DNA from: a virus
Lineage: Duplodnaviria > Heunggongvirae > Uroviricota > Caudoviricetes
Reading direction: 5' to 3' (one strand)
DNA: 40,384 bases
IMG/VR virus record: IMGVR_UViG_2718218168_000007
Span: 1 to 40,384 of that record
Shown: positions 541-34,005 of the stretch, piece after piece
Layout of the letters: each line of letters opens with the position of its first letter
How positions within the stretch are numbered: the stretch's first letter is position 1
Notes under the pieces: generated by a model
What the model was told of the DNA's origin: nothing
Databases searched by the model: none
Seen by the model: the letters and a program-made list of their open reading frames with translations, nothing else
Position numbers and translations under genes: made by a program

Positions 541-1844
<1,304 letters not shown>

Positions 1845-1904
1845 GTCTTTAAGTGATAAGCATAAACCGCAGCACGATCTTCTTGCATACGACGTGCTAC
1901 GGTT

Positions 1905-2459
1905 TCATTTATCTCCGACCGGAAACTTCTTATACAGTGTCGATATACCAACATCATAGATGATCGCCACCTTTTGGCGAGGAACGCCTGATGCAATTAA
2001 TCGCCCGGCCTGCGCCCATTGTTCTGGTGTAAGTTTGGGACGACGTCCACCAATTCGTCCCTGTGCGCGAGCTGCTTCCAGTCCAGCTTTTGTTCGTTCA
2101 ACAATCAGTTCACGCTCCATTTCAGCCAGGGCACCCATCACATGAAAGAAAAAGCGCCCCATTGGGGTACTGGTATCAATTGAATCCGTCAGACTACGAA
2201 AGTTGATGCCTCGTTCGCGCAACTCCTCCACCAGCACGACAAGATGCCGCATACTGCGCCCCAGTCGGTCCAGTTTCCAGACCACCAGCGTGTCACCTGC
2301 CGATAATGTCCTGAGCAGCTTTTTCAGTCCTGGTCTGTCGGACTTTGTACCGCTTATCTTGTCTTCAAAAATCAGCTCACATCCTGCACACTCCAGCGCA
2401 TTACGCTGTAATTCCGTATTCTGGTTATTTGTTGATACGCGGACATAGCCAATAAGCAT
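1905..2459 (-). CDS. pin: Serine DNA invertase, Pin/Gin/Cin/Hin family
   Basis: MLIGYVRVSTNNQNTELQ...LVVWKLDRLGRSMRHL...GRIGGRRPKLT is the resolvase/invertase catalytic core plus C-terminal HTH. Start placed at the internal ATG (2459) preceded by AGGGGA rather than the ORF-track start at 2504. Confidence 0.9.
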   Translation of the reverse strand: MLIGYVRVSTNNQNTELQRNALECAGCELIFEDKISGTKSDRPGLKKLLRTLSAGDTLVVWKLDRLGRSMRHLVVLVEELRERGINFRSLTDSIDTSTPMGRFFFHVMGALAEMERELIVERTKAGLEAARAQGRIGGRRPKLTPEQWAQAGRLIASGVPRQKVAIIYDVGISTLYKKFPVGDK

Positions 2460-2486
2460 GAGCATTCCCCTGAGTAAAAACCGGGG

Positions 2487-2879
2487 ATGATGCCAGTTAG
2501 CCATAATCTCTGCATTTTCTTAAACGTTGGTTTGGGAGAAGCGGCTAAAAGGAATGTAGGGACAGGGGCGAATCAGATACCTGATATGGGTAGCTTCACG
2601 CTTTCTGTTTCAGGTACTGGATATCAAAAATTACCATCAGGTTTTATTCTTCAGTGGGGCTCAATCGGCGCTCCAGGCATTGCACAGGATGTAGTAACCC
2701 ATTTCCCAATTGCATTTCCAAACAGATGTCTGCGTGTTTTGGTCTCACAAGACTATACACCAGATAGCGGGGCTGTTGGTTATATTGCCTGTGCAGGTTT
2801 TAGTCCCGACCCGGTTAAATTTATATCCAGAGCCAGTAATCCTGGCCTCGGCGCTTCATTTTTAGCGTTAGGCTGTTAA
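2487..2879 (+). CDS. Alternative tail-fibre C-terminal cassette (silent in this orientation)
   Basis: Plus-strand ORF inside the invertible segment with no independent start context; it begins at the left crossover site and encodes a fibre-tip-like sequence that would fuse to the constant fibre N-terminus after inversion. Confidence 0.5.
2515..2540. repeat. Left crossover site of the invertible segment (gix/pix-like)
   Basis: tttcttaaacgttggtttgggagaa resembles the recalled gix consensus; its 14-nt core ttggtttgggagaa recurs inverted at 4383-4396. Confidence 0.6.
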
Positions 2880-3915: not shown

Positions 3916-4685
3916 TATGCAGCCCTCACGATATAGTTAAATGCAATATTTCGTGGACGGGTTTCACTCCCGCCAGTATTACCGATACTCCCTCGTGAAT
4001 GAAGTGTCGGTGATGGGATCAGACTCCCTCCTGTATTTGTGGCATCAAGTCCACGTCCTTGTGTGTATGTCTTTTTGAAAATCGTAGCCAGTTCCCATTC
4101 ATCTTTTGTGTCGTAACCATCATTGGCAACAACAATATGGCGGTGTTTTTCCAGCATCCCTGTCTGAATGCTCAATAAAACACGTCCTGCATCAATACCG
4201 CGCCCGTCATCCCAGCCACGAATAAACTCACCACGTAAATCAGGCAATTTATTTGTCGGATAAGCCTTTGCCAGTTCCGGGTATTCTTCAGCAGAAAAAG
4301 CCGCACCGTTGCATTTCAGCCAGCCTGTTGGCGGTGTGGCTGAAGGCCATGGAACAGGCACACCAACAGGTAATGCAGAGCCTTCTCCCAAACCAAGGTT
4401 TTCGAGAGCCGTTTGCACAGTGCCATCCGATTTGATATCGCCAAACGGATTCTTGCGGCTTAACAGCAGCGCGCGAAGTGCGGTAAGTAACTGGTCGTGC
4501 CGCCCCTTCTCCAGGCTGGCACCGGATGCCTCCACCACGCTGCAAAGTTCCTCCTGCAACATGTCAAAGTAGTCATCATCCAGATCGGTGGCAGGCGTGC
4601 CGGTCTGGGGGTTACCACGGGTAAAACCGTTCTTACCCGCGCCGAACTTATCCTTCTGCGCGGTTTTCGTGTCTATACGATGCAT
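3915..4685 (-). CDS. Tail fibre protein (constant N-terminus 4397-4685, variable C-terminus inside the invertible segment)
   Basis: 256-aa product; the right crossover site lies in the codons for ENLGLGE; position matches e14 stfP-like short fibres. Confidence 0.75.
4383..4408. repeat. Right crossover site of the invertible segment (inside the fibre gene)
   Basis: ttctcccaaaccaaggttttcgagag; the first 14 nt are the exact reverse complement of 2527-2540. Confidence 0.6.
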
Positions 4686-4688
4686 GGA

Positions 4689-5273
4689 TTACTCCGGATA
4701 TTTAAAAATTACGTAGGTATGCGACGGGCAGAGTTTGTTAAGCACACACTCGACAACGGTGTCACCCCAGATACGCAGTGCGGAATCACAGGGATCGCCA
4801 CATGTCATCCAGGTGGTGTTGGTGGTGGCTGGCATGTTGACCTGCCAGTAATACCGCCATTCCGGTGCATTCACCGCGTCAGTACAGGCCGATGAGCAGG
4901 TGAAAGTGCTTTTGTCGTATCGCGTGATGGTGGCATCTGGTCTGCCCAGGGCAGCAAGCTGTGCAAGATAAAAATCCTCGTTGATGCCGCCCGCCAGGTT
5001 AACCTTCGCATCCAGCCGTTGCTGACGCTGGCGAAGGGTCTGCGTTCCCGCCGGAATACATTCATCCGGCAGACCGCACAGACGCTCCCAGCGGTTTATC
5101 AGTTCAGTGGTGGTGCGCGGATCCAGCTCCCGCATCAGGGCATCCGCACGCTGATGAACACGGGTTAATGACGGTGCCGCACCGGCAATCGCCGGATCGC
5201 TGGCTGACCACGCCGGACCGGGCGGCAACAGTGCCGATAACAGGCGGATGTAATCATCGTTTGTCACGTCCAT
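4689..5273 (-). CDS. Phage tail protein, DUF2313 family (Mu gp48 / e14 YmfQ-like)
   Basis: 194-aa product recalled as YmfQ-like; sits between the baseplate J gene and the fibre gene. Confidence 0.7.
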
Positions 5274-6322
5274 GAAATCGTCCCCAGTACCGCCAGTTCG
5301 TTTTTCGCAATGGAGATATTGTCCACCGGTGCAAGCAACTGATGGCTGTATTCCCCGTTCGCACCGGAAATCGCCTCACTGATACGCGATACCTTGAGTT
5401 CTCCCTGCGGATAACCATCACGCAGCAGGAACGAACGCAACTCCGCGGTAATGGCAGCCCGTATTTCTGGTGTGTCCGGCGTCACGCGGATATGAAAATC
5501 CACCGTATGTGCCACCGGCCTGAATACATACAAATCAGAGCCTGCCACCGGGGCCAGTGGCCAGATATGTTGTCTTGCTGCCGTTTCCGTTGACTCTTCC
5601 GGAATGGGATTAATCAGGTCACTGCTGGCAATCATCACACCGACAGTTCCCGTTCCCATCCAGTGACGGTATGTCCATGCGCGGGTAATGCCGGGCACTT
5701 CTTTAGCCCAGACGACATAGTCCCCGTCAGCCCCGCCCTGAGGCGTCCAGTAATACCGCTCAATGACGCGGGCGCGCCACGTTTCCAGCTCTTCAGTATC
5801 AAATCCACCTGTCAGGGTATCTGCCACGCCGGAAGACGGCAGACCATTAACCGGCGTGACCAGGATTAATGACGTACCGTCGTCAGCGTTACCGACCGCG
5901 CCTGCACTTGAGCAGGCGATCGGCACGCGCAGGACACCACCGGAGCTGGTTGCATCGGCAGTTGCCGTGTACTGAACCAGGTCATCGCGCTGAATAACAC
6001 TCCCGGCGGTCACCTTCAGGCCATCGCTGACACCTTCCCAGCGCATATACCCGCTGGCAGCCGTGGCCCCCTTGCGCGGACACCGTTTCATCGCAGCATG
6101 TCGCGCCAGCCAGGACTCATCGCACAGGTCAGGCAGAATGTTCATTGCCAGATAATCGATGTACCCGTAAACCGTATGCAGCGCCGCCGCATACACCTTT
6201 GCCCGCACGTCTTCATCCATGCGCCGGAGCGTGTCGCTGACGTCCAGCCTGGCGAATAAATCGTTACGGAGCATACTGATATTTTCTGTCAGCGTCGGGC
6301 GCTGAAATTCACTGTCCGCCAT
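5264..6322 (-). CDS. Baseplate J-like protein (Mu gp47-like)
   Basis: 352-aa product at the conserved position in a Mu-type baseplate cluster; family assignment by recall. Confidence 0.75.
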
Positions 6323-6737
6323 GCGTTATCGCACTCCACAGATCATCAAAAGAAATCATTACCGGTCCGTCACGACGCCAGAGAGTGATACTATTACCCA
6401 GTTCATTAATCCCGGTGCGGCGGATATCCAGATCAATACGGGACACCACGCCGTCATCAATCATCCATTGCAGGCATTCGCGGATATACCCCCTTACCGT
6501 CTGCACCAGCTGATTGGTCAGTTTGCTGCGCTGAAGCAGCCACAGTCGGGAGCCGTAACGGTCATTCTGTACCGCAGGCCAGGTATCCCCCCACCATCCC
6601 ATCGGGACGTCGGCGTTGTCATCAGGCTCCGCCCGCCGCCAGGTAAACAGGGAAATCACCACGGCGCGGGTCAGCGGATCCAGCGGTGCGCTGGCGCAGG
6701 TGCGTTTACCGTTCACCGTCAGCCACAGTTCCATCAT
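6309..6737 (-). CDS. Baseplate protein, phage GP46 family (Mu gp46-like)
   Basis: 142-aa product; size and synteny between the gp45-like and gp47-like genes. Confidence 0.65.
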   Translation of the reverse strand: MMELWLTVNGKRTCASAPLDPLTRAVVISLFTWRRAEPDDNADVPMGWWGDTWPAVQNDRYGSRLWLLQRSKLTNQLVQTVRGYIRECLQWMIDDGVVSRIDLDIRRTGINELGNSITLWRRDGPVMISFDDLWSAITHGGQ

Positions 6738-7282
6738 GCCTCCATCGCTTTATCAGGTTTGTCGGTGTTACTGCCCTGACCGTTCTCTCTGTGACGATGC
6801 CCGTTATAGGCAAGCCGCATCGCTGACATGGTGGTGCCGCTGGAGTCGCACAGGTCTTTCACCTGTCCTGTCACTTCTAGGTCCATTTCAAAACGTGCTT
6901 TAGGTGAATTGCGAAACGTGATCGTTTTACCTGCACCGTCCACCACGATCCCCTCCCGGGTCAGCGTCACGGACTGCCCCTGATCGTCATAGACCGCCAC
7001 CTCACCCGTCTGCAGCCCTTTCAGGCGGTAGCGCCGGTCCGACACCGTAACAACCACCGCATGAGAACGGTCGCCATCCGGAAACAACACCACCGCTTCC
7101 GCACCGCTGTTTGCCCTTGCGGTAAAACCGTAGGGTTCAAGATGTTCAACCCCGGCTTTGGGTTCACCGGCAATCAGGGACACATCCACGGTCTGACATT
7201 TCGTGGCGGCACTGATGCTTTTCACCACTGCCCGCCCAATAAGGCCGAGAAGTTGTCGCTGCATGGCTTCAATCGTCCTCAT
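6734..7282 (-). CDS. Baseplate assembly protein V / spike (Mu gp45-like)
   Basis: 182-aa product; synteny and recalled similarity to gpV-type baseplate proteins. Confidence 0.65.
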   Translation of the reverse strand: MRTIEAMQRQLLGLIGRAVVKSISAATKCQTVDVSLIAGEPKAGVEHLEPYGFTARANSGAEAVVLFPDGDRSHAVVVTVSDRRYRLKGLQTGEVAVYDDQGQSVTLTREGIVVDGAGKTITFRNSPKARFEMDLEVTGQVKDLCDSSGTTMSAMRLAYNGHRHRENGQGSNTDKPDKAMEA

Positions 7283-8361
7283 CAGAACGGGTCCTCCTGT
7301 ACTCTGGCTTTTTTCTTTTTCCGCGCGCCGGGGGCTTCGGGTTCAGGCAGATAAGCATCAGGTGGGCCGACACGGATTTCCGTCAGGGTGCCGTTCTGGT
7401 CCTGAGTAAACGTGACTTCCGAGACAAGCAGTTCGGTATTGTCGAAACCACAGACCGGATCGAAGACAATCACCCGCTGGTTGGGCTGCCACAGCGTACC
7501 GTTACCCTGTCGCCAGCCCTGAACCACATAGGTGGTTTCATCCGTCCGCGCCGCCCGTTGTCGGGCTTCAAAGTCCGCACGGGCAATACAGCCTGCCCCC
7601 GTAGCCTGCCCTGTCTGCCTGATATACATCGGACGGTAACGGGCAATAAATGCGTCCTCTGTGCGGGCCCGCAGCGCGGTGGTGGTGGCCTCACCGAAAT
7701 CATCGTCGTTTCCGGCACGCTGCCCCGCCACCTGGTAAACAGAAAACCGCTCCCGGATACTCTTCTCCGTATCACAGGAAAGGATATTTTCCCCAAGTAC
7801 CAGCGCGGTATGTGCCCGCGTTGAGCCAATACCGCCAATCACCAGCCTGCCGTGCGGGTCGTCGTAAGCCAGTGCCTGCTGCTGACCGAGTATTTTGTTG
7901 ATCACCTCAATCACCGTTTCGCCGTGATCAGGCTGGACATCAGGAATAACACCCGACGGCGCACTGTTGTTCACCACCTCAATGCCGAAAGGCGCAGCAA
8001 GCGCCTGCGCAATCTGTACCAGCGATCGTCCGTTAAACTGTGTCGGTTCGGCTGCACAGTCAATCAGGTCAGCGGTCAGACTGCGTCCGGCAATACCGGT
8101 GCTGACCGAACGGGCATCGTAACGAACGGGCGTCGCCTCCACCCAGCCGGTGATCACCAGCTCATCACCAATCAGCACCTCCACTTTTGAACCGTTTTTA
8201 ATGCGCGGCTGAAGCGTGGTGATACCCTCATCTCCCGGCCACTGTCGGGTGATCTCCACACTGAAATCCCGCGCCAGCCGTTCAATACCGGCACCGATGC
8301 GTACCGATGTCCAGCCATTCCACTCCCGGCCATTTACCCGTAGCGTGACATTGTCGTTCAT
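7282..8361 (-). CDS. Baseplate hub / tail protein (Mu gp44 P-like, P2 gpD-like)
   Basis: 359-aa product downstream of the DNA circulation protein gene, as in Mu; start codon overlaps the upstream stop. Confidence 0.65.
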   Translation of the reverse strand: MNDNVTLRVNGREWNGWTSVRIGAGIERLARDFSVEITRQWPGDEGITTLQPRIKNGSKVEVLIGDELVITGWVEATPVRYDARSVSTGIAGRSLTADLIDCAAEPTQFNGRSLVQIAQALAAPFGIEVVNNSAPSGVIPDVQPDHGETVIEVINKILGQQQALAYDDPHGRLVIGGIGSTRAHTALVLGENILSCDTEKSIRERFSVYQVAGQRAGNDDDFGEATTTALRARTEDAFIARYRPMYIRQTGQATGAGCIARADFEARQRAARTDETTYVVQGWRQGNGTLWQPNQRVIVFDPVCGFDNTELLVSEVTFTQDQNGTLTEIRVGPPDAYLPEPEAPGARKKKKARVQEDPF

Positions 8362-9692
8362 TGCACTGGCACCTTCAGAGGGATCACCGGCACAAAGCCG
8401 GGATGCGTAATGGCATTACGCCGGATAATGTCCGCGTCACGCGCCGCGTTATCAAACCAGGTCGCCGCCAGCACCAGCGCGGGTAAAACCTCATCCGGTG
8501 TGCGCTGAATGATCCGTGCAGACTGTTCAAGGCGCGTGTTGATATCCGCATTCAGATCTGCTTTCACCCGGCGCAGCGCCAGAAACAGCGCATCACTGGT
8601 TGTACGGGACAACTCCTTATCAATTGTCGTATTCAGTGTGTCGCGAATGTCAGTCAGTTCTTCCCACGTCGGCAGGTCAACCGTGTTTTTCACCGCCGGT
8701 GCATTGTTCAGTGCCGGATGCGTGACGGAAGGCCAGCCAGTGCTCTGCGCAGGTGTTGTTGCCTGCCCCACTGCGGAATTCTGCATCACCGCGGAAGTTG
8801 TTGGCGCAGGCAATCGGGTGATGGCATACGCCGCTTCGCTGATTGCGGTCGTACGAAGGGTGCTGGCAACCACATTACGCTGCTGCGTAGCCGTGGCGGT
8901 GGTTTTACTGTCCGTTTTCCAGACGCCGCGCGGTTGCAGATCGCTGCCGAGGCTGACACCGGAAAGCGTTTTGATCATGGTGACCAGGTCGCTGGCGTTA
9001 CCATAAAGGCGTTTCCCGGTACGCCACATTTTCTGCACCTGCTCAACGAAATTTTTGCCTGACGATGGCGGCGGCAGAAGTACCGAGATATCCCCCTGCA
9101 ACAGCCTGGCGGCATCCGATACGGCAGAATCCACCACTTTCATCGCATCAGAAACATACCCCAGCATTATGCTGGCATTACCGATAACGTCGTTCTGCAC
9201 GAAATCCGCCACACCATCGATACTGAAACCGCTGAAGCTGTCACTGATGCAGTCATCCAGTGCAGAACAGGATGACATCAGCGTCTGCGCCGTCGCCGCA
9301 CCTGATGTGGGGTAAGAGAGTTCTCCTGCTTCGACAAACTTCAGGTCAAAGCGGACAATACGCCCTTCACTTTTCGATGTGCTGACCCGAACTTCCCCGT
9401 CAACACAGACTTTCAGCTCACCATATGTCGGGTGGACAAGCGTGCCGGGACCGGGTTTATTCAGCGCTTCAATCAGGCGATCGCGCTGGTCAAAGCAGTC
9501 ATCTCCCACCACATAAGCTGTGATGGACGGGCGGAAAGTGACTTTTCCCAGATCTTCGGTATAGGGCTTGTCGCGGTTCGGGTATTCATGTGTTTCCACA
9601 CGGCGACCAGTTCCCGCACTTTCTTCTTCAACCTTAAACGGCACACCTCGAAATGACGCATCCTGAAGCCTGTCTTTCCACGTCATATACAC
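8358..9692 (-). CDS. DNA circulation protein (Mu gp43 N-like)
   Basis: 444-aa product with N-terminus MYMTWKDRLQDASFRGVPFKVEE typical of the Mu N family; lies between the tape measure region and the baseplate hub. Confidence 0.75.
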   Translation of the reverse strand: MYMTWKDRLQDASFRGVPFKVEEESAGTGRRVETHEYPNRDKPYTEDLGKVTFRPSITAYVVGDDCFDQRDRLIEALNKPGPGTLVHPTYGELKVCVDGEVRVSTSKSEGRIVRFDLKFVEAGELSYPTSGAATAQTLMSSCSALDDCISDSFSGFSIDGVADFVQNDVIGNASIMLGYVSDAMKVVDSAVSDAARLLQGDISVLLPPPSSGKNFVEQVQKMWRTGKRLYGNASDLVTMIKTLSGVSLGSDLQPRGVWKTDSKTTATATQQRNVVASTLRTTAISEAAYAITRLPAPTTSAVMQNSAVGQATTPAQSTGWPSVTHPALNNAPAVKNTVDLPTWEELTDIRDTLNTTIDKELSRTTSDALFLALRRVKADLNADINTRLEQSARIIQRTPDEVLPALVLAATWFDNAARDADIIRRNAITHPGFVPVIPLKVPVQ

Positions 9693-9696
9693 TCCG

Positions 9697-9727
9697 AAAA
9701 TAAAAAAGCCACCTATTAGAAGGTGGC
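9697..9727 (-). terminator. Intrinsic terminator of the tail-operon moron
   Basis: On the minus strand: stem GCCACCT/AGGTGGC with a 6-nt loop followed by TTTTTTATTTT, about 20 nt after the stop of the 9748-10278 gene. Confidence 0.7.
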
Positions 9728-9747
9728 CTTGTAATGAATTTTATTAA

Positions 9748-10278
9748 TTAGCGAGTCAGAAACAACGAATCTTTATACTTTTGCTGTTGTTCATTTAAAT
9801 ACTTAGCTGTTTCATCGCTGGCAAATGGAAATATTACCGTATTTTTAGGCATGGTAATTTCTTTTTTGTCCAGCGTCAGAGTAAACATAGGAACATACTG
9901 AGCAGAGTAACGCACCGCAGAAACGAGCTCTAGTTTAGACTCTTCAATAACACTTAAATTATCCAGGCTAACTTTCTCTTCATCTTTTTTCTTTGACGCA
10001 TTTAAAGTTTTTATTACTTTATTTAATTTCTCCTGAAAATCCTCCTTAAAGTTTTCAGGATTGCCGTCGACAACAAGAATCTGTTCACCCTGATTATCTG
10101 GAAAAATAATCTTTGCACTTATCAATTTATTTTCTTTATAAACATCACCAAGTTTTATGGCTCCTCCAGATAACTGAATAATATGTTCATCTTTAAAGGA
10201 GATGTTGCCAGAGATTATGAGAGATGAAAAAATAGCCGCTGCTCCAAGAATTACACTTGCTGTGATATAGCCTTTCAT
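9748..10278 (-). CDS. AT-rich moron protein with N-terminal signal/anchor helix, unknown function
   Basis: 176-aa Lys/Glu-rich product with N-terminus MKGYITASVILGAAAIFSSLIISG; the gene is visibly more AT-rich than the flanking tail genes and has its own promoter-like and terminator elements. Confidence 0.65.
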   Translation of the reverse strand: MKGYITASVILGAAAIFSSLIISGNISFKDEHIIQLSGGAIKLGDVYKENKLISAKIIFPDNQGEQILVVDGNPENFKEDFQEKLNKVIKTLNASKKKDEEKVSLDNLSVIEESKLELVSAVRYSAQYVPMFTLTLDKKEITMPKNTVIFPFASDETAKYLNEQQQKYKDSLFLTR

Positions 10279-10313
10279 TTTTCGCCTATTAACATTTTTC
10301 TAAATGTGCATTA

Positions 10314-10341
10314 ATTCTATCACTCTATTTATGACTTACAA
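10314..10341 (-). promoter_or_regulatory. Candidate sigma70 promoter for the tail-operon moron
   Basis: On the minus strand: TTGTAA, 16-nt spacer, TAGAAT, about 35 nt upstream of the ATG at 10278. Confidence 0.4.
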
Positions 10342-10369
10342 CCAGCAATACATGTGAGGGGAATCCTGG

Positions 10370-12202
10370 CTACCAAAATCGGGTATAGCCAACATCGTGA
10401 TTTATATCAATGCCACTGGAGCGTGTTTCCGTAACCCGCATACCTGGTGGCATATTTATAAATGATACCTTGATCTCACCATCAACTTTTGGCGCGGTAG
10501 CTTTATTAATCATGAAGGGATTCGAGCCTGTGGCATCGGAGGCGTTGTTTGCCTGAGCCGGATCCACCGCCGGATAAGGAGTGTATCCCCGTGCCGGTAT
10601 TCCCGTCCCATAAGCATCATAAGCACCCGCGCCCCACTGCGCAGAGTTAATGGCATCGACCGTGTCACCGGAACTGTCGGTAAACCACTCAATAATTGGC
10701 TTCAGCTTGTCCCACATATCCTGAAACCACTTAACAACCGGCCCCCAGTTATTGATCACCATCCCCATCGGCGACCAGGCAAAAACTTTCTTAAGGAGTT
10801 CCCAGCCAGCCTCAAAATAAGGACCAATGGTTTCCCAGAGCTTCTTGAAATAAGGTCCGACAACATCCCAGTTAGTGATAATTAATCCCGCAGCCAGGGC
10901 TATCGCCGTCGCAATCATGCCAATCGGCGTCATCGACATGATCCTGCTGACAATGCTGATGGCACTGCCCACGCCCATCAATCCCAGTTTCAGAATCGCA
11001 AGACCGGCAGCAAGCCCGACGACGCCGCGAATAACCCGGGGATTTTCATCCGCAAACTTCGTGAATTTTTCCCCCAACTCCCCCAGCCATTGCGTGATAT
11101 TTTTGGCGTCACCAGAAAATGCGCCGCCAATAGCCGCAAGGCCGTTAGTTGCGGTCCCCGTCATTGCCTCCCACAGGTTGGACAGCGTACCAAGCTGTGC
11201 CTGAACACGTTTATTCAGGCTGGCCTGTTTATTCATCTTTTGCTGGATCTGATCGTAACCATCCTTTCCTTTATCGATCAGCGCATTGACCACCTGAAGG
11301 GTTTCGGCATCATCACCAAATATTGCCTTAAGTACACCTGTTCGCTTAACGTCGGTAAGTTTTCGCAGCTTTGCCAGTTGCTTAAACATGTTATCAAGAC
11401 CGCCAAAACTTCCTTTGCCGTCAGTAAAATCGAGCTGTACCCCGAGTTTCTGACGGGCCATAACTTTATTGACGTCCCTGATTTTCTTAACGCTTAATCC
11501 GGACTGGATAACTTTTCGCAGGGCATTACCTGCCGACTCCCCGTTCATCCCCATCTGATCCATCATGACGCTGATGGGGGCAAGGCTCTGTGCAGCCTGA
11601 AGACCGTCCTTGTTCACCATCTTCAGAACAGAACTGGTTTTAGTGAAGAAGGACAACATGTTGGTATCGTCAACGCCCAGATAAAACGCCTTCTGGATAG
11701 TGTCGAACAGCCCCATCATGTCTTCTGACGCCGTTCCGGTAGCATCCTGCATCTTTGCAGCAAACTCAGCAGCCGCTTCCGGTGTTTTTTTCAGTTGTAC
11801 CGCAAGATAAGCTGTCGCTTTACCCACACCACCAAGAATGTTTTCTGCCGGGATCCCCTGACGCACCAGCATCTGCATCATGTTCTGGAAATCAGCCGTT
11901 GTACCGGGTAGCTGGTTACCCAGGCCAATAGCCAGTTTATTGATGTCCTGAAAGCTCTTTCCGACCTCGCCGTTCGCATCCATCATGGCGACTTTCAGCC
12001 CGGTGGCGGCGTTTTCCTGATCGGCATAAGATTTCAGGGAAAGCGTCAGACCCGCTGCCAGTCCGCCACCAAGCGCCAGCCCACCCTGTGATGCTTCTTC
12101 CGCCTGGCGTTTAAATCCCCGGATTTTCTTTTGCATTTTCGACAGCGCGGGAGAAAGTCTGTCGACACCGGTGATCAACGCCTTAAGCTCAAATTCAGCC
12201 AT
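10370..12202 (-). CDS. Tail tape measure protein
   Basis: 610-aa product with Ala/Gly-rich helical N-terminus and a hydrophobic central segment; directly downstream of the chaperone pair. Confidence 0.85.
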   Translation of the reverse strand: MAEFELKALITGVDRLSPALSKMQKKIRGFKRQAEEASQGGLALGGGLAAGLTLSLKSYADQENAATGLKVAMMDANGEVGKSFQDINKLAIGLGNQLPGTTADFQNMMQMLVRQGIPAENILGGVGKATAYLAVQLKKTPEAAAEFAAKMQDATGTASEDMMGLFDTIQKAFYLGVDDTNMLSFFTKTSSVLKMVNKDGLQAAQSLAPISVMMDQMGMNGESAGNALRKVIQSGLSVKKIRDVNKVMARQKLGVQLDFTDGKGSFGGLDNMFKQLAKLRKLTDVKRTGVLKAIFGDDAETLQVVNALIDKGKDGYDQIQQKMNKQASLNKRVQAQLGTLSNLWEAMTGTATNGLAAIGGAFSGDAKNITQWLGELGEKFTKFADENPRVIRGVVGLAAGLAILKLGLMGVGSAISIVSRIMSMTPIGMIATAIALAAGLIITNWDVVGPYFKKLWETIGPYFEAGWELLKKVFAWSPMGMVINNWGPVVKWFQDMWDKLKPIIEWFTDSSGDTVDAINSAQWGAGAYDAYGTGIPARGYTPYPAVDPAQANNASDATGSNPFMINKATAPKVDGEIKVSFINMPPGMRVTETRSSGIDINHDVGYTRFW

Positions 12203-12343
12203 GTGTGCGTTTCTCCTGCTCTATCCTGTTTGCCTGACTGACCAGCAAGGGAATTTCACTGATCGGCATATTCAGCAATTCGAAGGGATTAATGCGCCAG
12301 TAACTGGCGCAGTCAAAGAAGCGATCAGTGAGGTATTCAGCCG

Positions 12344-12613
12344 TCAGGCCTGGAGGAAAAAACCGGCCACAAGCCACGCCGCTGCATTCAGGTCTGCCGG
12401 AGACATCTGGTCGACAGAGCTTTGCGGCACTTTCGCCAGCCGCACAATGTATTTCGACACCACATGCGCCAGAAGTCTGACGGACTCATCCTGATTCATC
12501 TGGTAGGGATACCCCAGCTCGCGGACATCCTTCCCGGTGGGTTCATCAAACTCCAGTACGGAAAGTGTCTCACCATGAGCGATAATCGGTTTCTTTAACT
12601 CAAGCTCTTTCAT
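12344..12613 (-). CDS. Tail assembly chaperone (Mu gp41 / P2 gpE-like), probable frameshift partner 12195-12377
   Basis: 89-aa ORF followed by an overlapping 60-aa ORF in another frame, immediately upstream of the tape measure gene: the canonical G/GT arrangement. Confidence 0.65.
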   Translation of the reverse strand: MKELELKKPIIAHGETLSVLEFDEPTGKDVRELGYPYQMNQDESVRLLAHVVSKYIVRLAKVPQSSVDQMSPADLNAAAWLVAGFFLQA

Positions 12614-12969
12614 TACTGGTAATCCCCTTCTTCACCGTGGAACTCAAGATCAACCGTGCCTTCTTCGGCATTATGGTTCGCTTCGCCGTGCAGCCAGGAG
12701 GACGACAATACATAGACCTGACCGTTCGCCAGCTCGGCAGTGATGGTCATCTCATCAGACGAGGTGATTTTGCTCACCGGAAAATTCTTCGGCACCTTGA
12801 AGGTCCCTTTGACATAAGGCGCACGGTGAGTTTCCTTGCGGTCCACTGAACCGTCCAGGCCGATGATGTCATCATTGACCGTCCTGTTCATGGGCACCTC
12901 AATGCCGCCGGTCAGCGATAGCTGCTGACCGTCAATTTTGAAATAACAGGTTCCCCCGATACGGGCCAT
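12613..12969 (-). CDS. Tail tube protein (Mu gpM-like)
   Basis: 118-aa product immediately downstream of the sheath gene. Confidence 0.75.
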   Translation of the reverse strand: MARIGGTCYFKIDGQQLSLTGGIEVPMNRTVNDDIIGLDGSVDRKETHRAPYVKGTFKVPKNFPVSKITSSDEMTITAELANGQVYVLSSSWLHGEANHNAEEGTVDLEFHGEEGDYQ

Positions 12970-14465
12970 TATGCGGACTCCTCTGAATACTGAAGACGGA
13001 ACTGGTTAACCACGGCAAAGACACGCAACTGGTTAACATAGTCAGGCGGGAACAGCGTGTTCAGGCGGTTCGGATCGCTGGCATCACGCTCCACAACCAG
13101 GTACTGCTTAAACAGTTCGTAGTTTTCCACGATCCCCGCACGCTCAAGCTGACGGTAGGTTGCCAGCAGTTCCCCTTTGATCACCGCCGGTGTGACAATC
13201 GCCTGACCGGGACCAAAGCGGGTACCGTCGCTGGCAAGCTTGTGACGCCCGTACTTACTGGTAATGACGGATTTCAGTTTGCGCAGCACATACGCGCTGG
13301 TATGCAGCGTCTCGCTGTCGAGGTAGCTGTTATCCGCAACACCGTAAGCGTTTTTCCTGTACGTGGTGACATCACGCTGAATGCGCAGCACCCCGCTTTC
13401 GACATACGCCGTTGCCACGCCATGAGACAGCAGGGTCTGTTGTTCGGTCATCGTGAACCGTTTCCCCTTCGGCGCAGGCAGCATCCCCACCAGCTCACCG
13501 GTCTGCGTGGGACGTGCCGGATCGTTGCGAATAAACACCGCTGCGCGGGCGGTACGGCTTGCCGCCAGCTCGTCGGCAGGCGTCTGGGTCTCTTTTTCGT
13601 ATCCCGCCAGGGTAATGTGCTGCTGGTTAAACTGGTCACCTGCGGTCACCAGTTCTGACAGCGTGCCGATCTTTGCCGTATACACATGACCATACAGCTG
13701 ACGCGCATAGCTCCAGCGACCGCTGGTATCGTTCATCTCGGTCACCAGCGTGTTAACGGAGGCCGTGTCGTTGAACGGCAGGCCGATATAATCAAACGGC
13801 TCATCCGCCATTGCAGCCACCGCGCCGGTGAGAACAGGAGCGCCCGTTCCGGCGGTACCCGTCGCCACGGCAATCTGTACGCCCGCTGGCAGCACTTCGC
13901 CCCCACCAAAGCCGTAGTAATTGAGGCTGACAGGAATTTCATTCCCGCAAAGCCCCTTATGACGCGCGGTCAGTGTGACCACGCCTGCCGAAGATGAGGC
14001 AGTAAACGGCAGGGTCGGAACGGCATTGATGGCATCCTGGATACTGCTGGCAATCGTCGCAACGTTATCGCCGTTGGTCACCGGTGCCTGCACGCGGGTA
14101 CGTCCCACATAAACATTCACCGTGCCGGTTTCGGTTGCCGCGCCGGTCACCGTCAGCGTAACCGTTGCCGCCGCGCCCGTGGATTCAGGAACGGCAATCA
14201 CATACAGCTCGCCAAACGGGTCGGTCTGGCGATAAGCCTCAACCATACGCGCCAGCTGACTTCCCGCACCACAAATCTGGCGTGCATAGTCTGCCGACGG
14301 CATCAGTACCAGACTGTTGGCAACAATCTCTGCACCGTTATTGGCATGACCAATCAGCAGCGATGCTCCGCTGTCCTGTGCAGTATTCGCAGCCTGGTTA
14401 TCCATTTCCGCATAAAACAGCGGAACCAGCGTATTCGACGGAATGGTGTTAAAGCTTATCGTCAT
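12969..14465 (-). CDS. Contractile tail sheath protein (Mu gpL-like)
   Basis: 498-aa product in a sheath-tube-chaperone-tape measure order. Confidence 0.85.
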   Translation of the reverse strand: MTISFNTIPSNTLVPLFYAEMDNQAANTAQDSGASLLIGHANNGAEIVANSLVLMPSADYARQICGAGSQLARMVEAYRQTDPFGELYVIAVPESTGAAATVTLTVTGAATETGTVNVYVGRTRVQAPVTNGDNVATIASSIQDAINAVPTLPFTASSSAGVVTLTARHKGLCGNEIPVSLNYYGFGGGEVLPAGVQIAVATGTAGTGAPVLTGAVAAMADEPFDYIGLPFNDTASVNTLVTEMNDTSGRWSYARQLYGHVYTAKIGTLSELVTAGDQFNQQHITLAGYEKETQTPADELAASRTARAAVFIRNDPARPTQTGELVGMLPAPKGKRFTMTEQQTLLSHGVATAYVESGVLRIQRDVTTYRKNAYGVADNSYLDSETLHTSAYVLRKLKSVITSKYGRHKLASDGTRFGPGQAIVTPAVIKGELLATYRQLERAGIVENYELFKQYLVVERDASDPNRLNTLFPPDYVNQLRVFAVVNQFRLQYSEESA

Positions 14466-14619
14466 CGGTGTTCACCTTTTTATTCACGCGCCGGATATCA
14501 CCCGCTGCTTCACGGCGCAGCCAGTAGTTGTTCTCATCAACATTTCGCCCTTCGGCGGGCAAAAGGTCGCCGCGGGCAGGATCAGGAACTGACCGCCCTT
14601 TAACAGGTTTGACAAACAT
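14449..14619 (-). CDS. Small Mu-like protein (DUF2635-like), not in the ORF track
   Basis: My own translation gives a 56-aa ORF, MFVKPVKGRSVPDPARGDLLPAEGRNVDENNYWLRREAAGDIRRV..., whose stop overlaps the sheath start; matches the small conserved gene before the sheath in Mu-like tails. Confidence 0.5.
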   Translation of the reverse strand: MFVKPVKGRSVPDPARGDLLPAEGRNVDENNYWLRREAAGDIRRVNKKVNTDDDKL

Positions 14620-14627
14620 GAGGATCC

Positions 14628-15188
14628 TCAGGAAGGAAGGGTTATTTCGGTGTGATGTTCGATATCGCCGTCAGGCCCGTTACCGGGCTCGAGATAATCA
14701 ACATCAATCGCCAGCGTTTGCAGTTCATCCAGACTGTTCAGATCATCCTGCTGGCGGGTATCGTCTTCAGTCAGCTCGCTGATGACCGAAAAATCGAACT
14801 GATAAATCAGCTCATGACGATTCAGATCCAGCAGCGTGCCGCCGTCATAGGTAATCGGGTTACCGCACGCCTCCGGGTTCCAGCCCAGCAGAGCCTTAAA
14901 GAGCATCTGCCGGACATCGTCCACCACATCATACGAGGCAAACTGACCGCGCTCATCACGCCCGTTACTCAGTATGACAACCACGGAGAAACCCTCTTTC
15001 AGCTCCTGCCAGTAGTCGGTCTGGCTTTTGTTTTCTCCCGGAGAATCATCACCCGGTACCACATACGCCGCCGGGAGTCTCAGCTTTCCGACCTCCGGCA
15101 GATTTTTGAACTGTGCCGCGCCTGCCACCCGGTTTTCAAAATACGGGCAGCGGGCACGCAGCGCAGCAATAACAGGCGTCAGTTTCAT
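14628..15188 (-). CDS. Mu gp37-like virion protein (DUF1834 family)
   Basis: 186-aa product at the conserved position upstream of the sheath cluster. Confidence 0.6.
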   Translation of the reverse strand: MKLTPVIAALRARCPYFENRVAGAAQFKNLPEVGKLRLPAAYVVPGDDSPGENKSQTDYWQELKEGFSVVVILSNGRDERGQFASYDVVDDVRQMLFKALLGWNPEACGNPITYDGGTLLDLNRHELIYQFDFSVISELTEDDTRQQDDLNSLDELQTLAIDVDYLEPGNGPDGDIEHHTEITLPS

Positions 15189-15691
15189 CTGTGTCGTCGC
15201 TCCGGCTTCAGTGATTTACGCAATTCCCGCGCCAGAAAATAGCGTGTCCAGCTGCGGTTCTTTTCAAGCGTTTCCACCATAAAGTTATTACGTGGAGCCA
15301 GTCGCCAGCCGCTGCCACCGGATGCACCACGATGATGGCTGCGACGACGCTTTGCTCCTCCCCGGACACCAAAAAACAGAAACGCCGGATAGAAGTCACC
15401 AGAGATCATCCGGTTCCCCTTCCCGTTGCGCTGGTTAGGGGCAATGCGTGTCATAAAACCGGCTCGCTTTTTACTGGCTCTCGGCACCATGTAACCAATC
15501 GAACGAGCCAGCCGTCCGGTCTGATAACCGGGGTTTTCACCCGGTGCCGACCGCGCACGGCGCATCACCAGCCGACGGGCATCACGCATATGACGCTGCC
15601 CAATCGTGACAAACGCCCGCCGGACACGGGCACGGTTAAAGCGCATCTCCGCGGGCTGCTGAACATCAACGTGAAAAAAGGGAGTCGCCAT
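15185..15691 (-). CDS. Virion morphogenesis / tail completion protein (Mu gp36 or HK97 gp10-like)
   Basis: 168-aa very Arg-rich product between the head-closure and tail genes; assignment by position and composition only. Confidence 0.45.
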   Translation of the reverse strand: MATPFFHVDVQQPAEMRFNRARVRRAFVTIGQRHMRDARRLVMRRARSAPGENPGYQTGRLARSIGYMVPRASKKRAGFMTRIAPNQRNGKGNRMISGDFYPAFLFFGVRGGAKRRRSHHRGASGGSGWRLAPRNNFMVETLEKNRSWTRYFLARELRKSLKPERRHR

Positions 15692-16076
15692 TGCTGCCTC
15701 CGTGACTCTGCGTAAATTCGCCCAGTTCCGTACACTCCAGCAGCAGAAAGCGCCGCGCCCCGTTCAGATCGCGCTGACGTTTCACCCGGTACACACTGTC
15801 ACCGCAGACCACCTCATAATCAGCGGTGATCCCCCGGCGGTAGCGAATGGTGATGTAATGGGTGATGGCGTCCCCGGTCTGCGCGGTTTCCTGCCAGGTG
15901 GTGGCACTGGTCTGGATAACCTTCGCCCATGTCCGGAACGTAACCGGGTATTGAGACTCCACGCCAAAGTTATCCGCGGGCATATCCACCCGCTGGCGGA
16001 TCAGGACGCGTTTATTCAGTTCACCGGGGTCCGGCAGAATGTAGGTTGCGCTGGTCTGCGCCTGACGAATTTTCAT
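15666..16076 (-). CDS. Head closure / head-tail joining protein
   Basis: 136-aa product downstream of the connector-like gene in an HK97-like head module. Confidence 0.55.
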   Translation of the reverse strand: MKIRQAQTSATYILPDPGELNKRVLIRQRVDMPADNFGVESQYPVTFRTWAKVIQTSATTWQETAQTGDAITHYITIRYRRGITADYEVVCGDSVYRVKRQRDLNGARRFLLLECTELGEFTQSHGGSNGDSLFSR

Positions 16077-16396
16077 TGCGGAAAGTACCTGTACGGGCCG
16101 ACAAGCCAGCCAAAACTCTGCGGCATGTCGAGTTTCTCCACTTCCGTAACCGACGAGCGGTTTTCGTAAAAATGGCTGATAAGCATCAGCATCCCCAGAC
16201 GAATATCATCCGGCAGGTGCAGCCCGTCCGGATCGCTGTCCGGAATGGTTTCATCCGGTGCATAGAGCTTCCGGTTCAGATACGTTTCCGTCCGCTTTTG
16301 CGCCGCACAGGCCAGCAGTTGCAGATGGCGGTCATCAGCATCGAAATCCTCATCCAGCCGGAGTTGGGCTTTAATCTCTTCCATTGTCAGAAGCAT
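16073..16396 (-). CDS. Head-tail connector (gp6-like DNA packaging protein)
   Basis: 107-aa product; N-terminus MLLTMEEIKAQLRLDEDFDADD resembles gp6-type head-tail adaptors. Confidence 0.6.
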   Translation of the reverse strand: MLLTMEEIKAQLRLDEDFDADDRHLQLLACAAQKRTETYLNRKLYAPDETIPDSDPDGLHLPDDIRLGMLMLISHFYENRSSVTEVEKLDMPQSFGWLVGPYRYFPQ

Positions 16397-16398
16397 AC

Positions 16399-16599
16399 TC
16401 AGCCCTCTTTACTGGTCGTGGCTTTTTTCTCTTTTGCCGCTTTACTGCTTTTTGCACTGGTTCCGCGCTCTGCTAACCCGGCCTGAAGTGCAATCTCCTG
16501 CACCCGGGCAGGAAGCGCCCCGTCGTCATACTCACCGGCCCGAATGACCTCAACACGCATACCGTCCGGTGACCATTTCAGATCTTGTTTCAGGATCAT
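16399..16599 (-). CDS. Small hypothetical head-module protein
   Basis: 66-aa ORF with a Lys/Ala-rich tail, packed between the capsid and connector genes. Confidence 0.4.
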   Translation of the reverse strand: MILKQDLKWSPDGMRVEVIRAGEYDDGALPARVQEIALQAGLAERGTSAKSSKAAKEKKATTSKEG

Positions 16600-16648
16600 G
16601 ATTCTTCACCCGTCAGAACAGGGGGCGCGGTTCCGCGCCCCTGAATGA

Positions 16649-17854
16649 TTACGCCGCAGCAATCTTCAGCAGTTTGATGGCCTGCGAATCGACCAGCATC
16701 CCGCCGGTGCGCTTGGTGGTATAAAAACCGACAAACGGTTTATTGGTGTACGGGTCACGCAGAATGCGGGTGCCGATACGGTCAACGATGGTGTAACCCC
16801 GTTTGAAGTTACCAAATGCAATGGCTTTCGCATCAGCGGCGATATCCGGCATCTGTTCGTTTTCAGCGATACCGTAACCCGCCAGAGAGGACGGCTGCCC
16901 CAGTTCCAGCCCCGGACGCCACAGATAGTTACCCTCGGTGTCTTTCAGCAGACGGATGGCAAACAGGCTGTTGTTGTTCATCATGAACTTCGCGCCAGTT
17001 CGGTGTGCCTTACGCAGCGTGTAAATCAGTTTGATAATGGCGTCTGCGGTCACCGCAGTCGCGTCGCCGGATACAATATGCTGAAGTTTGCCGAACGCCC
17101 GGACCTTGTCGGTTTCATCAGTGGATTCATACGCCAGGAACCCTTTCGGCTTCTTGGTGCCATCGCCTGAGGTAAAGGCAATTTCTTCCTGTTCGGCAAA
17201 TTCGGTTGCCAGCTCGCTGTTGATCCAGGCCTCCACGTTGAAGAAGGCATCGTCCAGCATTTTCTGGGTAGCCTGCGGGTTGCCGTAAATTTCCCCCATG
17301 AGAGGTTCAATCAGCTCCAGTCTGGAGGTGGCAGTCTGGGATCGCGTATCCGTTTCCCCCACCCATCCGGAAGCCGTACCGCCCAGATTCACCAGTTTTT
17401 TGTAGTCGGAACCGCCAACGGTGATCACCGTGGCTTCCTGACGCATCACCACTTCATCTTTCAGCAGGTTAAGAATGTTGCGATCCAGTTCTTCCGGCAC
17501 GGCGTAGCCACCGTCTTCATCGGTACCCACCTGCAATGCCTTACGCTCCAGATCGCGCAGACCGTCTTCACGGCCTTTACGCAGGAAGCCCACAAACGCC
17601 TCTTTATGCTCGGAGGCCAGTTTATTTTGCGCTCCACCAGCCGGACGTTTCAGCTCAAGCAGCTCTTTTTCAAGGTCGCTTTTGAGATTTTCCAGCTCGC
17701 TGAGTTTCCCGTTCAGGGTTTCCACCTGCCCGGCAAGCTTGCCTTTTTCCTGCTCAATCGCATCCACGCGCTTGTCGTTCTTTGCTTTGAAGTCGTCAAA
17801 CTTCTGCTGCAGCTCCTGCGCGACCTGTTCGACATCTTTAATATCAACCGCCAT
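16649..17854 (-). CDS. Major capsid protein, HK97 family
   Basis: 401-aa product with an N-terminal coiled-coil delta-like domain followed by an HK97-fold region. Confidence 0.85.
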   Translation of the reverse strand: MAVDIKDVEQVAQELQQKFDDFKAKNDKRVDAIEQEKGKLAGQVETLNGKLSELENLKSDLEKELLELKRPAGGAQNKLASEHKEAFVGFLRKGREDGLRDLERKALQVGTDEDGGYAVPEELDRNILNLLKDEVVMRQEATVITVGGSDYKKLVNLGGTASGWVGETDTRSQTATSRLELIEPLMGEIYGNPQATQKMLDDAFFNVEAWINSELATEFAEQEEIAFTSGDGTKKPKGFLAYESTDETDKVRAFGKLQHIVSGDATAVTADAIIKLIYTLRKAHRTGAKFMMNNNSLFAIRLLKDTEGNYLWRPGLELGQPSSLAGYGIAENEQMPDIAADAKAIAFGNFKRGYTIVDRIGTRILRDPYTNKPFVGFYTTKRTGGMLVDSQAIKLLKIAAA

Positions 17855-17868
17855 CGTATTTCTCCTGA

Positions 17869-18555
17869 TTAGAAGTTCAGATTTTTCAGTGCATTCAGTG
17901 CAGAGCCCACATCCTCAGCGTCGCGCAGGGACAGTGCGCCATAGCCCCCGGCCATGAATGCTTTGGCCTGGGTACGGGAGAGTCCGACATCACGCAGGAC
18001 TCTTTCGATTTTTTTCTGTTCGGGGATTTCCCCGCGGGCCAGTGCGTTCTTGACGTCGCTGATCCGCGCCTCGTCGTTAGACGGGAACGTCACCAGGCTG
18101 ACTTCCCAGAGGTCGATTTCTTTCAGCAGAAAGGCTTCTTTGCTCCGGTCGTATTCCCAGTCTTTCAGGACGTACCCAATAGAAAGGCCGGTTAACGAAC
18201 CGGCCTTCATGTGTGCATGTGCGCGTTTTGCGAGGGGATCATCATCAATAAGCAACCGTCCCCTGACGTAAAGCCCGACATCGTCTTCCTTCATTTCGGT
18301 GTAAACACCGATGGGTTCATCCATGCGGTGCTGCCAGAGCAGCGCAGGTAACGCTTTTCTGTCACTCCACGCCCGCAGGGAAGCAGCAAATGCCCCGGAC
18401 ATCACCACATCATCGTGGCTGTCCTTTACACCAAAGACGGAGCCATACCCTTCAAACTCACCGGAGTCACTGACAGATTTCAGACTCAGCGGTACATCAA
18501 GACGTTGTTTCGTCTGCATTGGCGTTATCCTTCTGCTTACCGGCTTTACTGCCAT
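17869..18555 (-). CDS. Prohead protease, HK97 family
   Basis: 228-aa product between the portal and capsid genes; overlaps the portal 3' end as is typical. Confidence 0.8.
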   Translation of the reverse strand: MAVKPVSRRITPMQTKQRLDVPLSLKSVSDSGEFEGYGSVFGVKDSHDDVVMSGAFAASLRAWSDRKALPALLWQHRMDEPIGVYTEMKEDDVGLYVRGRLLIDDDPLAKRAHAHMKAGSLTGLSIGYVLKDWEYDRSKEAFLLKEIDLWEVSLVTFPSNDEARISDVKNALARGEIPEQKKIERVLRDVGLSRTQAKAFMAGGYGALSLRDAEDVGSALNALKNLNF

Positions 18556-19738: not shown

Positions 19739-19920
19739 TATTTACCTCCGCCGACAGACGACTGTGTACGGTCGAGATATCGCGCCACCAGCCACGACCA
19801 GAACAGGCACAACGCCCCGGCAACAACAAACCCCGCCGGGGGATAAATCAGCCAGGCACCATACGCCAGCAAAAGCGCCCCCAGCACGCCCACCAGAGGC
19901 GCGAGAATCAGCATGATCAT
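19738..19920 (-). CDS. Small predicted two-helix membrane protein between terminase and portal
   Basis: 60-aa [52 protein letters not shown] fills the terL-portal gap exactly. Confidence 0.45.
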
Positions 19921-19931
19921 AATTACCTCAG

Positions 19932-32914: not shown

Positions 32915-33024
32915 TATCAATTCCTATTGGTATTGCAATGAATGAATAATAGCAATACGTATTAATCCAAGCAATAGCAAAACGTGTTTTGACCATCAAT
33001 ACGCAAGCGTATAAATTAAAACTT
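32915..33024. promoter_or_regulatory. OR-type operator/promoter region (divergent PR and PRM)
   Basis: Minus strand has TTGCTT, 17 nt, TATTAT toward cro; plus strand has TTGACC, 15 nt, TATAAA ending about 10 nt before the cI ATG; several ATAGCAAT-type motifs shared with the OL region. Confidence 0.55.
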
Positions 33025-33717: not shown

Positions 33718-34005
33718 TCCCATGTCTAAATAATAGACAATATTAATGATGGCGATAGTCAAAGCTCTCGCCATGACACTTTATGTTGTATTGAATTATG
33801 CCTCTCTACCACTATATATAGCAAACAACTTTCCAGTACCTCTCCCCAGAATAATATGCTGTCCAATGAGGATAAACAGCAATAAATCCTATCGTTTTAT
33901 AAGTGACGGATGTACATAAAGTTATTAATATGTACTAACAGTTACCTTTCAGGTAAAATGCAAACATTACACAACTGGTTATTTATACAGTTAAGGGGGC
34001 ATAAC

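Follow-up and report, generated by a model that had tools for sequence, protein, structure and literature searches.

The envelope proteins Imm and Sp of phage T4 and Llp of phage T5 stop DNA entry or inactivate receptors. The gp15 moron of phage HK97 is reportedly to be credited to Cumby et al. in 2012. This independently transcribed moron, located in the tail operon as a direct neighbour of the tape-measure gene, encodes a single-pass inner-membrane superinfection exclusion (Sie) protein; the protein is made in the prophage state and prevents genome entry, and whether an incoming phage is excluded depends on its tail region (PMC3594210). Envelope exclusion proteins encoded by prophages or phages also include SieA of P22 (PMC10883804), Ltp of TP-J34 (PMC3952083) and Cor (PMC3594210). 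The bor and lom genes of lambda are cargo of the late region, and their envelope products are expressed in lysogens (PMC3594210).

The locus described here is a 176-aa ORF in the tail operon of a lambdoid prophage. It resembles the gp15 moron in being an AT-biased add-on that adjoins the tape-measure gene and in encoding what is predicted to be a single-pass inner-membrane protein. By contrast, gp15 is small and YebO-related and is encoded upstream of the tape-measure gene of a siphovirus, whereas the present product has 176 residues, including a predicted periplasmic domain, and is encoded downstream of the tape-measure gene of a contractile tail. Homology to YebO or gp15 was sought in Pfam-A, which we take to include a YebO model, and no family matched the 176-aa protein at E values up to 0.1; NCBIfam also gave no match.

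With SieA, Ltp, Cor/Llp and Imm/Sp the protein shares a predicted envelope location, and scans against Pfam, PHROG and PADLOC revealed no similarity to any of them. Cor, Llp and Ltp are exclusion lipoproteins that carry a lipobox cysteine, whereas the 176-aa protein contains no cysteine. The ORF is comparable to bor and lom in that it is envelope-protein cargo of a lambdoid late region. The products of bor and lom are, however, an outer-membrane lipoprotein and an outer-membrane beta-barrel with roles in host interaction, whereas an inner-membrane location is predicted for the protein described here.

The tail-operon locus and its carrier prophage

The window, that is, the whole stretch of 40,384 nucleotides analysed, is, to judge from its sequence, an SfV/SfII-like lambdoid E. 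coli prophage with a Mu-type contractile tail. It encodes a CI-like repressor, the O and P replication genes, an integrase and a Pin-like invertase, and its structural modules specify an HK97-type head and the Mu-type contractile tail. The tail-gene DNA is 96-97% identical to that of the Shigella serotype-converting phages SfV, SfII and SfI. In the nearest complete genome, the prophage is located at the icd/e14 site.

Positions 9693-10369 constitute the entire gap separating two minus-strand tail genes, and a single ORF, also on the minus strand, lies inside (Table 1). The first-pass annotation had reported, without giving a strand, a 176-aa ORF between the tape measure and DNA circulation genes that was visibly more AT-rich than its flanks, and both observations were confirmed: the GC content of the ORF is 0.343 (GC3 0.299), compared with 0.51-0.58 (GC3 0.56-0.66) for the flanking tail genes, and the 600-nt bin at 9601-10200 is the AT-richest in the 40-kb window. 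A Mu gp44/P-like hub gene comes next after the DNA-circulation gene.

Table 1. Coordinates of the ORF, its flanking genes and associated sequence features in the window
Feature	Position	Strand	Remarks
DNA-circulation gene (Mu gp43/N-like)	8358..9686	-	PF07157, 4e-34; downstream edge of the slot set by its Shine-Dalgarno and T-run
Intrinsic terminator, 10-pair hairpin (GGCCACCT...AGGTGGCC) plus T-run	9694..9730	-	Abuts the Shine-Dalgarno of the DNA-circulation gene
Terminator hairpin	9730..9705	-	Followed by TTTTTTATTTT, then the GGAG Shine-Dalgarno of the DNA-circulation gene
176-aa ORF, phrog_5485 member	9748..10278	-	Predicted bitopic inner-membrane protein with a periplasmic beta/alpha domain
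Codons of the N-terminal transmembrane helix, residues 2-23	10210..10275	-	KD19 mean 2.11; AF2 helix 2-23
Weak Shine-Dalgarno-like AGGCGA	10282..10287	-	Read from sequence; 3-6 nt ahead of the ATG of the ORF
Perfect palindrome ACATTT-AGAA-AAATGT	10292..10307	.	Directly past the -10 hexamer; operator-like or leader position; read from sequence
Candidate sigma70-like promoter TTGTAA-16 nt-TAGAAT with TG extension	10341..10314	-	9/12 consensus matches; 35 nt 5' of the ATG
Tape-measure gene	10370..12202	-	PF10145, 1e-26; variable slot bounded upstream by its stop codon
Intact lambdoid Q antiterminator gene	25963..26652	-	PF06323, 4e-95, positions 1-217 of 220

Occupants of the tape-measure/DNA-circulation junction

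The junction was surveyed in 5426 complete E. coli genomes. The flanking sequence was present in ~1092 of these and the ORF in 170-177, and it is missing from ~84% of E. coli prophages with the same flanking tail genes. Among the ORF-carrying E. coli records, 178 of 179 matched at an identity of at least 99%. Carriers make up 3% of the E. coli genomes; their hosts and sources are highly diverse, and no association with a pathotype is apparent.

Sampling of the junction among near-identical tail clusters revealed five states, namely the ORF, an empty site and three other occupants. The empty site, which is the state of most relatives, has a 60-nt spacer (for example, L001). The other occupants encode a 164-aa protein with a classical signal peptide, designated alt164 (L002; 85 genomes), a 225-aa lipoprotein with an LLGGC lipobox (L003; 55 genomes) and a 148-aa OB-fold protein with an N-terminal TM helix, the gene for which lies on the opposite strand (L004; 72 genomes). 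Phage SKA5 carries alt164, and gp16 of Pantoea phage AH07 looks related to this occupant. All slot occupants are AT-rich (31-42% GC) and all are, by prediction, targeted to the envelope. The other occupants each matched a PHROG family of their own, none of them the phrog_5485 family to which the 176-aa protein belongs, and they and the ORF were mutually exclusive among near-identical tail clusters.

The OB-fold occupant matched phrog_8545, annotated 'superinfection exclusion Sie-like' (1.5e-49), and also PF12869; the 'Sie-like' label is an annotation given by PHROGs. This protein and the remaining occupants share with the ORF the chromosomal slot, AT-richness and envelope targeting, but the OB-fold gene runs on the opposite strand and shows no sequence relationship to phrog_5485. 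Neither phrog_8545 nor PF12869 was among the Pfam and PHROG matches of the 176-aa protein.

Junction alignments showed that similarity between the states breaks off in the final 2-3 tape-measure codons and, at the opposite edge of the slot, where the DNA-circulation gene has its T-run and Shine-Dalgarno. The genomes of SfV, SfII, SfI and vB_EcoM-689R6 have the empty state, with the tape-measure and DNA-circulation genes adjacent. Given that these four were, as we presume, isolated as infectious phages, the ORF appears to be dispensable for virions. The comparison with homologous tail clusters that had been proposed for this locus yielded insert-free relatives, and the ORF is not a conserved tail component. 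No match to the ORF was obtained when 50,697 phage records were searched by blastn and tblastn, and no deposited phage genome among them carries the gene.

Patchy presence in collinear relatives, deviant base composition and a downstream terminator, which are among the features of a moron in the sense of Juhala and Hendrix, were found for the cassette. It is an ordinary, well-behaved moron with an uncharacterised product, and we consider it very probable that it represents horizontally exchanged cargo in a polymorphic slot.

The 176-aa protein and the phrog_5485 family

The N-terminus of the 176-aa protein reads MKGYITASVILGAAAIFSSLIISG. Although the first-pass annotation had stated that no family could be assigned, the protein matched phrog_5485 over its full length (3.8e-108, positions 1-176 of 176). 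This family carries no function annotation in PHROGs. A profile search of 1.84 billion cluster representatives (50% clustering) retrieved 77 relatives, most of which are ~170-200 aa long with an N-terminal hydrophobic segment, and all 61 of the relatives that were aligned matched phrog_5485. No defence-system model in PADLOC-DB v2 was matched by the 176-aa protein at E values up to 1, a Pfam scan of the 61 family members returned scattered single-member noise only, and no PDB sequence reached an E value below 0.3 in a profile search. Nothing was found when IMG/VR was searched with single distant family members. The literature was searched for the protein, by accession, and for morons located between the tape-measure and DNA-circulation genes, and no paper on either came to light. 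By sequence comparison, the protein appears to lie outside the gp15/YebO, OB-fold Sie-like and Cor/Llp/Ltp families and all PADLOC families.

Orthologues are known at 41-59% identity, and the conserved motifs were present in the 15 that were aligned. The best-conserved motif of the family, G-x-[VI]-x-L-G-x-[VI]-Y-x-E, spans residues 38-49, just past the hydrophobic helix, and a second is centred around Y124...P-x-F-x-L-x-L. Orthologues in Leclercia-type prophages (53-55% identity) and in Edwardsiella anguillarum (41% identity) occupy the slot of the ORF; in the latter the flanking tape-measure and DNA-circulation proteins are 44 and 68% identical, respectively. The ORF is old in the slot and not a recent insertion. 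The orthologues checked stay at 35-39% GC, and this lasting AT-richness may reflect selection, control by H-NS or recurrent replenishment from an AT-rich pool. For the one unsaturated pair, L007 and L012, a dN of 0.084 and a dS of 1.07 were obtained (dN/dS 0.078), which is indicative of purifying selection on the ORF.

More distant relatives, at ~23% identity, were found in Pseudomonas-type and marine genomes, where they reside in small integrase/resolvase elements and not in tail operons, with an Mrr-like nuclease and another secreted protein as neighbours. Because the distant relatives sit in such elements, phrog_5485 can be regarded as generic mobile-element cargo. A 180-aa neighbour of the distant relatives was considered as a possible paralogue and rejected (hhalign probability 0.2).

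The hydropathy profile revealed one hydrophobic segment (Kyte-Doolittle 19-residue mean of 2.11 at residues 5-23) and no second one. A single Lys precedes the hydrophobic helix and a net charge of -1 follows it; the region past the helix contains 20 K and 14 E. As the protein is devoid of Cys it has no lipobox and is not a lipoprotein. In the family members P0097 and P0090, the hydrophobic segment is internal, following ~115 and ~43 residues, respectively; it therefore cannot be a cleaved signal peptide there, which favours a retained N-in/C-out anchor. One source names a Leclercia orthologue 'Secreted protein'. The N-terminal signal or anchor helix and the Lys/Glu-rich character recognized at first pass were thus both upheld, with the evidence favouring a retained anchor over a cleaved signal peptide, and the suggestion of a periplasmic or membrane-anchored product is supported, as a prediction, by hydropathy, the AlphaFold2 model and the internal segment of P0097. 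A membrane-anchored protein with a periplasmic domain is the likely topology.

An AlphaFold2 model built on the 61-sequence alignment (pLDDT 91.9, pTM 0.76) predicts a helix at residues 2-23, a beta-hairpin at 32-44 and strands at 46-58 and 65-72, followed by a helix at 74-93, strands at 114-126 and 132-143 and a helix at 149-171. Fold searches used an earlier AlphaFold2 model (pLDDT 68) that has the same secondary-structure elements from residue 46 on; with this query, Foldseek against the PDB gave nothing below E 0.05. A BFVD match to a 'Lipoprotein' of Pseudomonas phage ventosus (E 1.7e-5) was not taken as homology, the TM score being only 0.42-0.50.

Transcription signals and proposed function

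The TTGTAA-16-TAGAAT sequence that the first-pass annotation had taken as a sigma70-like promoter belonging to the ORF is present, but as a consensus match only. Shuffling of the 91-nt intergenic spacer gave a promoter match at least equally good in 13% of cases, and within the 4.5-kb region four promoter-like sites were found, compared with 4.1 expected. By itself, the match is weak and not significant. Several diverged orthologues have promoter-like sites of their own at a similar distance from the start codon, in spacers that are not alignable. The site of the L094 orthologue (TTGTCA-16-TATAAT) reaches 11/12 matches, and none was found upstream of the L099 orthologue. Taken together, the upstream sites of the orthologues lend modest support to an autonomous promoter. 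At the position of the palindrome that adjoins the promoter candidate (Table 1), the Leclercia orthologues have different inverted repeats.

The strong terminator with a T-tract abutting the next Shine-Dalgarno, also reported at first pass, is indeed present, and its hairpin has a folding energy of -15.6 kcal/mol, but it is not specific to the cassette. A hairpin and T-run, with other stem sequences, also occur at the empty site (-14.8 kcal/mol) and in two of the three other occupants, and the depositors of the SfII record annotated the empty-site hairpin as a putative rho-independent terminator. The terminator is therefore a property of the slot and not of the cassette alone. As no terminator was found downstream of the tape-measure gene and ahead of the ORF, transcripts of the late operon must extend into the ORF as well. 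Polymerase modified by lambda Q ignores intrinsic terminators, and for this reason a Q-dependent late operon would be expected to tolerate the slot terminator; by analogy, we infer read-through at this site.

The following mechanism is proposed. In the lysogen, a constitutive and possibly H-NS-modulated sigma70 promoter would drive a monocistronic mRNA of ~0.6 kb that ends at the hairpin, such that the baseplate genes would stay silent. During lytic growth, Q-modified RNA polymerase would pass the hairpin, rendering the cassette non-polar. The protein would insert N-in/C-out, with its single helix tethering a ~150-residue beta/alpha domain at the periplasmic face of the inner membrane, and may there block incoming phages at the genome-entry step. 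Its targets could be the tail-tip/tape-measure machinery of the incoming phages or a host envelope factor that those phages need. That phrog_5485 is conserved in unrelated elements and hosts speaks against a partner as narrow as a single type of tape measure.

The most likely function would be superinfection exclusion, or defence, acting when the phage genome enters, as suggested by the precedent of HK97 gp15, by the 'Sie-like' annotation of the OB-fold occupant and by the envelope targeting of all occupants; we hold it tentatively, with confidence that falls somewhat short of even. The argument for exclusion is one of position and analogy. The overall account, an exchanged moron encoding an envelope protein that probably serves in superinfection exclusion, may be viewed as almost evenly balanced, if still slightly on the doubtful side. 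The hotspots of P2 and P4 swap cytoplasmic defence systems. It is doubtful, if conceivable, that in a similar manner the junction of SfV-like phages forms a dedicated, recombination-bounded 'envelope-defence slot' that swaps exclusion genes, with phrog_5485 as an unrecognised exclusion family of periplasmic proteins anchored in the inner membrane and acting via the conserved membrane-proximal hairpin of the G-x-[VI]-x-L-G-x-[VI]-Y-x-E motif (G39, L43, G44, Y47, E49).

The position of the ORF within the tail cluster, right after the tape-measure gene, and the conservation of that position in Leclercia-type prophages and Edwardsiella could be explained if the product were a structural or assembly component of the tail, such as a tape-measure- or baseplate-associated factor. 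This is highly improbable and is largely refuted: the ORF is missing from most near-identical tail clusters and from SfV, SfII and SfI, unrelated envelope proteins replace it in the slot, one of them encoded on the opposite strand, an N-terminal membrane anchor is predicted, and family members occur in elements without tail genes. It is extremely improbable that the ORF is non-functional, a decaying stretch of AT-rich filler, even though truncation, a frameshift or IS5 has affected some copies (P0004, L099, H6). Such decay is contradicted by the evidence of selection and structure, since dN/dS is 0.078, the motifs are conserved across 61 diverse members, the co-evolution-based AlphaFold2 model is confident (pLDDT 91.9) and 178 of 179 E. 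coli records agree at an identity of at least 99%.

Two further explanations accept the predicted envelope location and differ from exclusion in the role assigned. As a periplasm-facing membrane protein made from the prophage, the product could benefit the host in a manner unrelated to phages, for instance through envelope stress tolerance, resistance to serum, colicins or bacteriocins, or adhesion (cf. lambda Bor and Lom). The anatomy of the cassette and the envelope targeting fit such lysogenic conversion equally well, moron products with roles of this kind are documented (PMC3594210), and the presence of distant relatives in non-phage elements implies that the function of the family need not concern one phage group. 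We nevertheless regard it as unlikely, as the slot can also hold a gene annotated Sie-like, carriers make up only 3% of E. coli genomes with no visible pathotype link, and Pfam and NCBIfam scans revealed no similarity to a known virulence or resistance family. Since late lytic transcription would also yield the product, the protein could instead serve the lytic cycle of the phage itself, as an accessory co-transcribed with the late tail operon, and the upstream promoter match would be a matter of chance; the protein might stop progeny from injecting into infected or lysing cells, in the manner of T5 Llp, or tune envelope events before lysis. That late transcripts must contain the ORF, there being no terminator after the tape-measure stop, that the promoter match is statistically weak and that orthologues keep the same slot in Leclercia-type prophages and Edwardsiella are all consistent with this. 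It is quite unlikely, however, given that the SfV, SfII and SfI genomes lack the ORF, which thus appears dispensable, that promoter-like sites, one of them with 11/12 matches, lie at comparable distances in several diverged orthologues, and that the distant relatives lie outside any late operon.

Two results are modestly new, namely that the tape-measure/DNA-circulation junction is a slot for envelope proteins with several states, and that a confident predicted model is available for the uncharacterised family phrog_5485. The slot, with at least five states and all occupants envelope proteins, is useful for prospecting; three of the four occupant families are without known function, and all four are candidates for one kind of role. 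If the 176-aa protein excludes phages, it would represent a new and structurally distinct family among the few envelope-level exclusion proteins and would give the study of contractile-tail phages a tractable case in E. coli. Caution is indicated in phage therapy and typing, in that SfV-like prophages differing at the slot alone may differ in phage-resistance profile.

Terminator, composition and damaged copies at the variable slot

The slot between the tape-measure and DNA-circulation genes, occupied in the window by the AT-rich 176-aa gene of phrog_5485, retains a hairpin followed by a T-run even where it is empty, as in the relative L001 and in SfII (L105), where the depositors labelled the element a putative terminator. 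A mid-operon intrinsic terminator among the tail genes is therefore a standing feature of the SfV/SfII-like phage group.

The GC content of the gene is 34-39% in every genus, as determined for the window copy and its orthologues in L007, L012, L013 and L016. The encoded proteins have diverged to 41-55% identity, which equals or exceeds the divergence of most flanking tail proteins. Amelioration is absent despite this divergence. Damaged copies were also observed: the locus in NZ_CP101274.1 (hit H6) carries an IS5 insertion, the copy in P0004 has an internal deletion, and that in L099 is shortened or disrupted, with an annotated CDS of just 315 nt and a 2-nt deletion within the promoter spacer.

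A perfect palindrome adjoins the candidate promoter of the gene. Its position is that of an operator-like or leader element, and inverted repeats of different sequence occupy the equivalent place in the Leclercia orthologues.

Locations of features in the window and in related loci
Feature	Location	Strand	Remarks
Palindrome ACATTT-AGAA-AAATGT	window 10292-10307		directly after -10 hexamer
176-aa gene (phrog_5485)	window 9748-10278	-	
Shortened or disrupted copy of 176-aa gene	L099 6001-6531		
Hairpin (-14.8 kcal/mol) and T-run	L001 790-850; L105 1539-1577		empty slot
Integrase/resolvase elements	L100 4434-7534; L104 5935-7531		distant phrog_5485 members
Two extra ORFs	L007 8013-9808		Leclercia-type prophage
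IS1 transposase, LEM-3-like GIY-YIG nuclease ORF, Pin-like invertase	window 541-2504		left end
DUF3800 ORF	window 24938-25741	+	Pfam 1e-10
Q antiterminator gene	window 25963-26652	-	
CI-like repressor gene	window 32989-33717		
SocA/Panacea antitoxin-domain ORF	window 33910-34859	+	domain match 8e-21

Distant members of the family

Distant phrog_5485 members (23% identity) lie within integrase/resolvase elements in L100 and L104, in both cases adjoining a small resolvase. Next to the L100 member there is also an Mrr-like restriction nuclease, as well as another protein with a signal peptide. The setting of these members looks like a small defence or cargo island.

Possible further cargo and mosaicism of the prophage

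Leclercia-type prophages (L007, L008, L009, L011 and L012) contain two extra ORFs, of 503-507 and 94 aa, between the DNA-circulation and hub genes. Neither gave a Pfam match, and both are missing in the window and in L013. The DNA-circulation/hub junction, one gene further downstream than the first slot, forms a second slot of this variable kind.

Within the window, the DUF3800 ORF has the look of a second cargo gene of the moron type: it is encoded on the opposite strand, within a patch of 37-40% GC, with the Q antiterminator gene on one side and lysis genes on the other. The SocA/Panacea ORF directly follows the CI-like repressor gene in AT-rich surroundings and may pair with an abutting 127-aa ORF as a toxin-antitoxin or defence module of the immunity region. 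At the left end, the transposase, nuclease and invertase ORFs adjoin the tail-fibre genes. Because collinearity with the nearest complete genome (99%) is limited to positions 4383-22635, the remainder of the prophage is mosaic.
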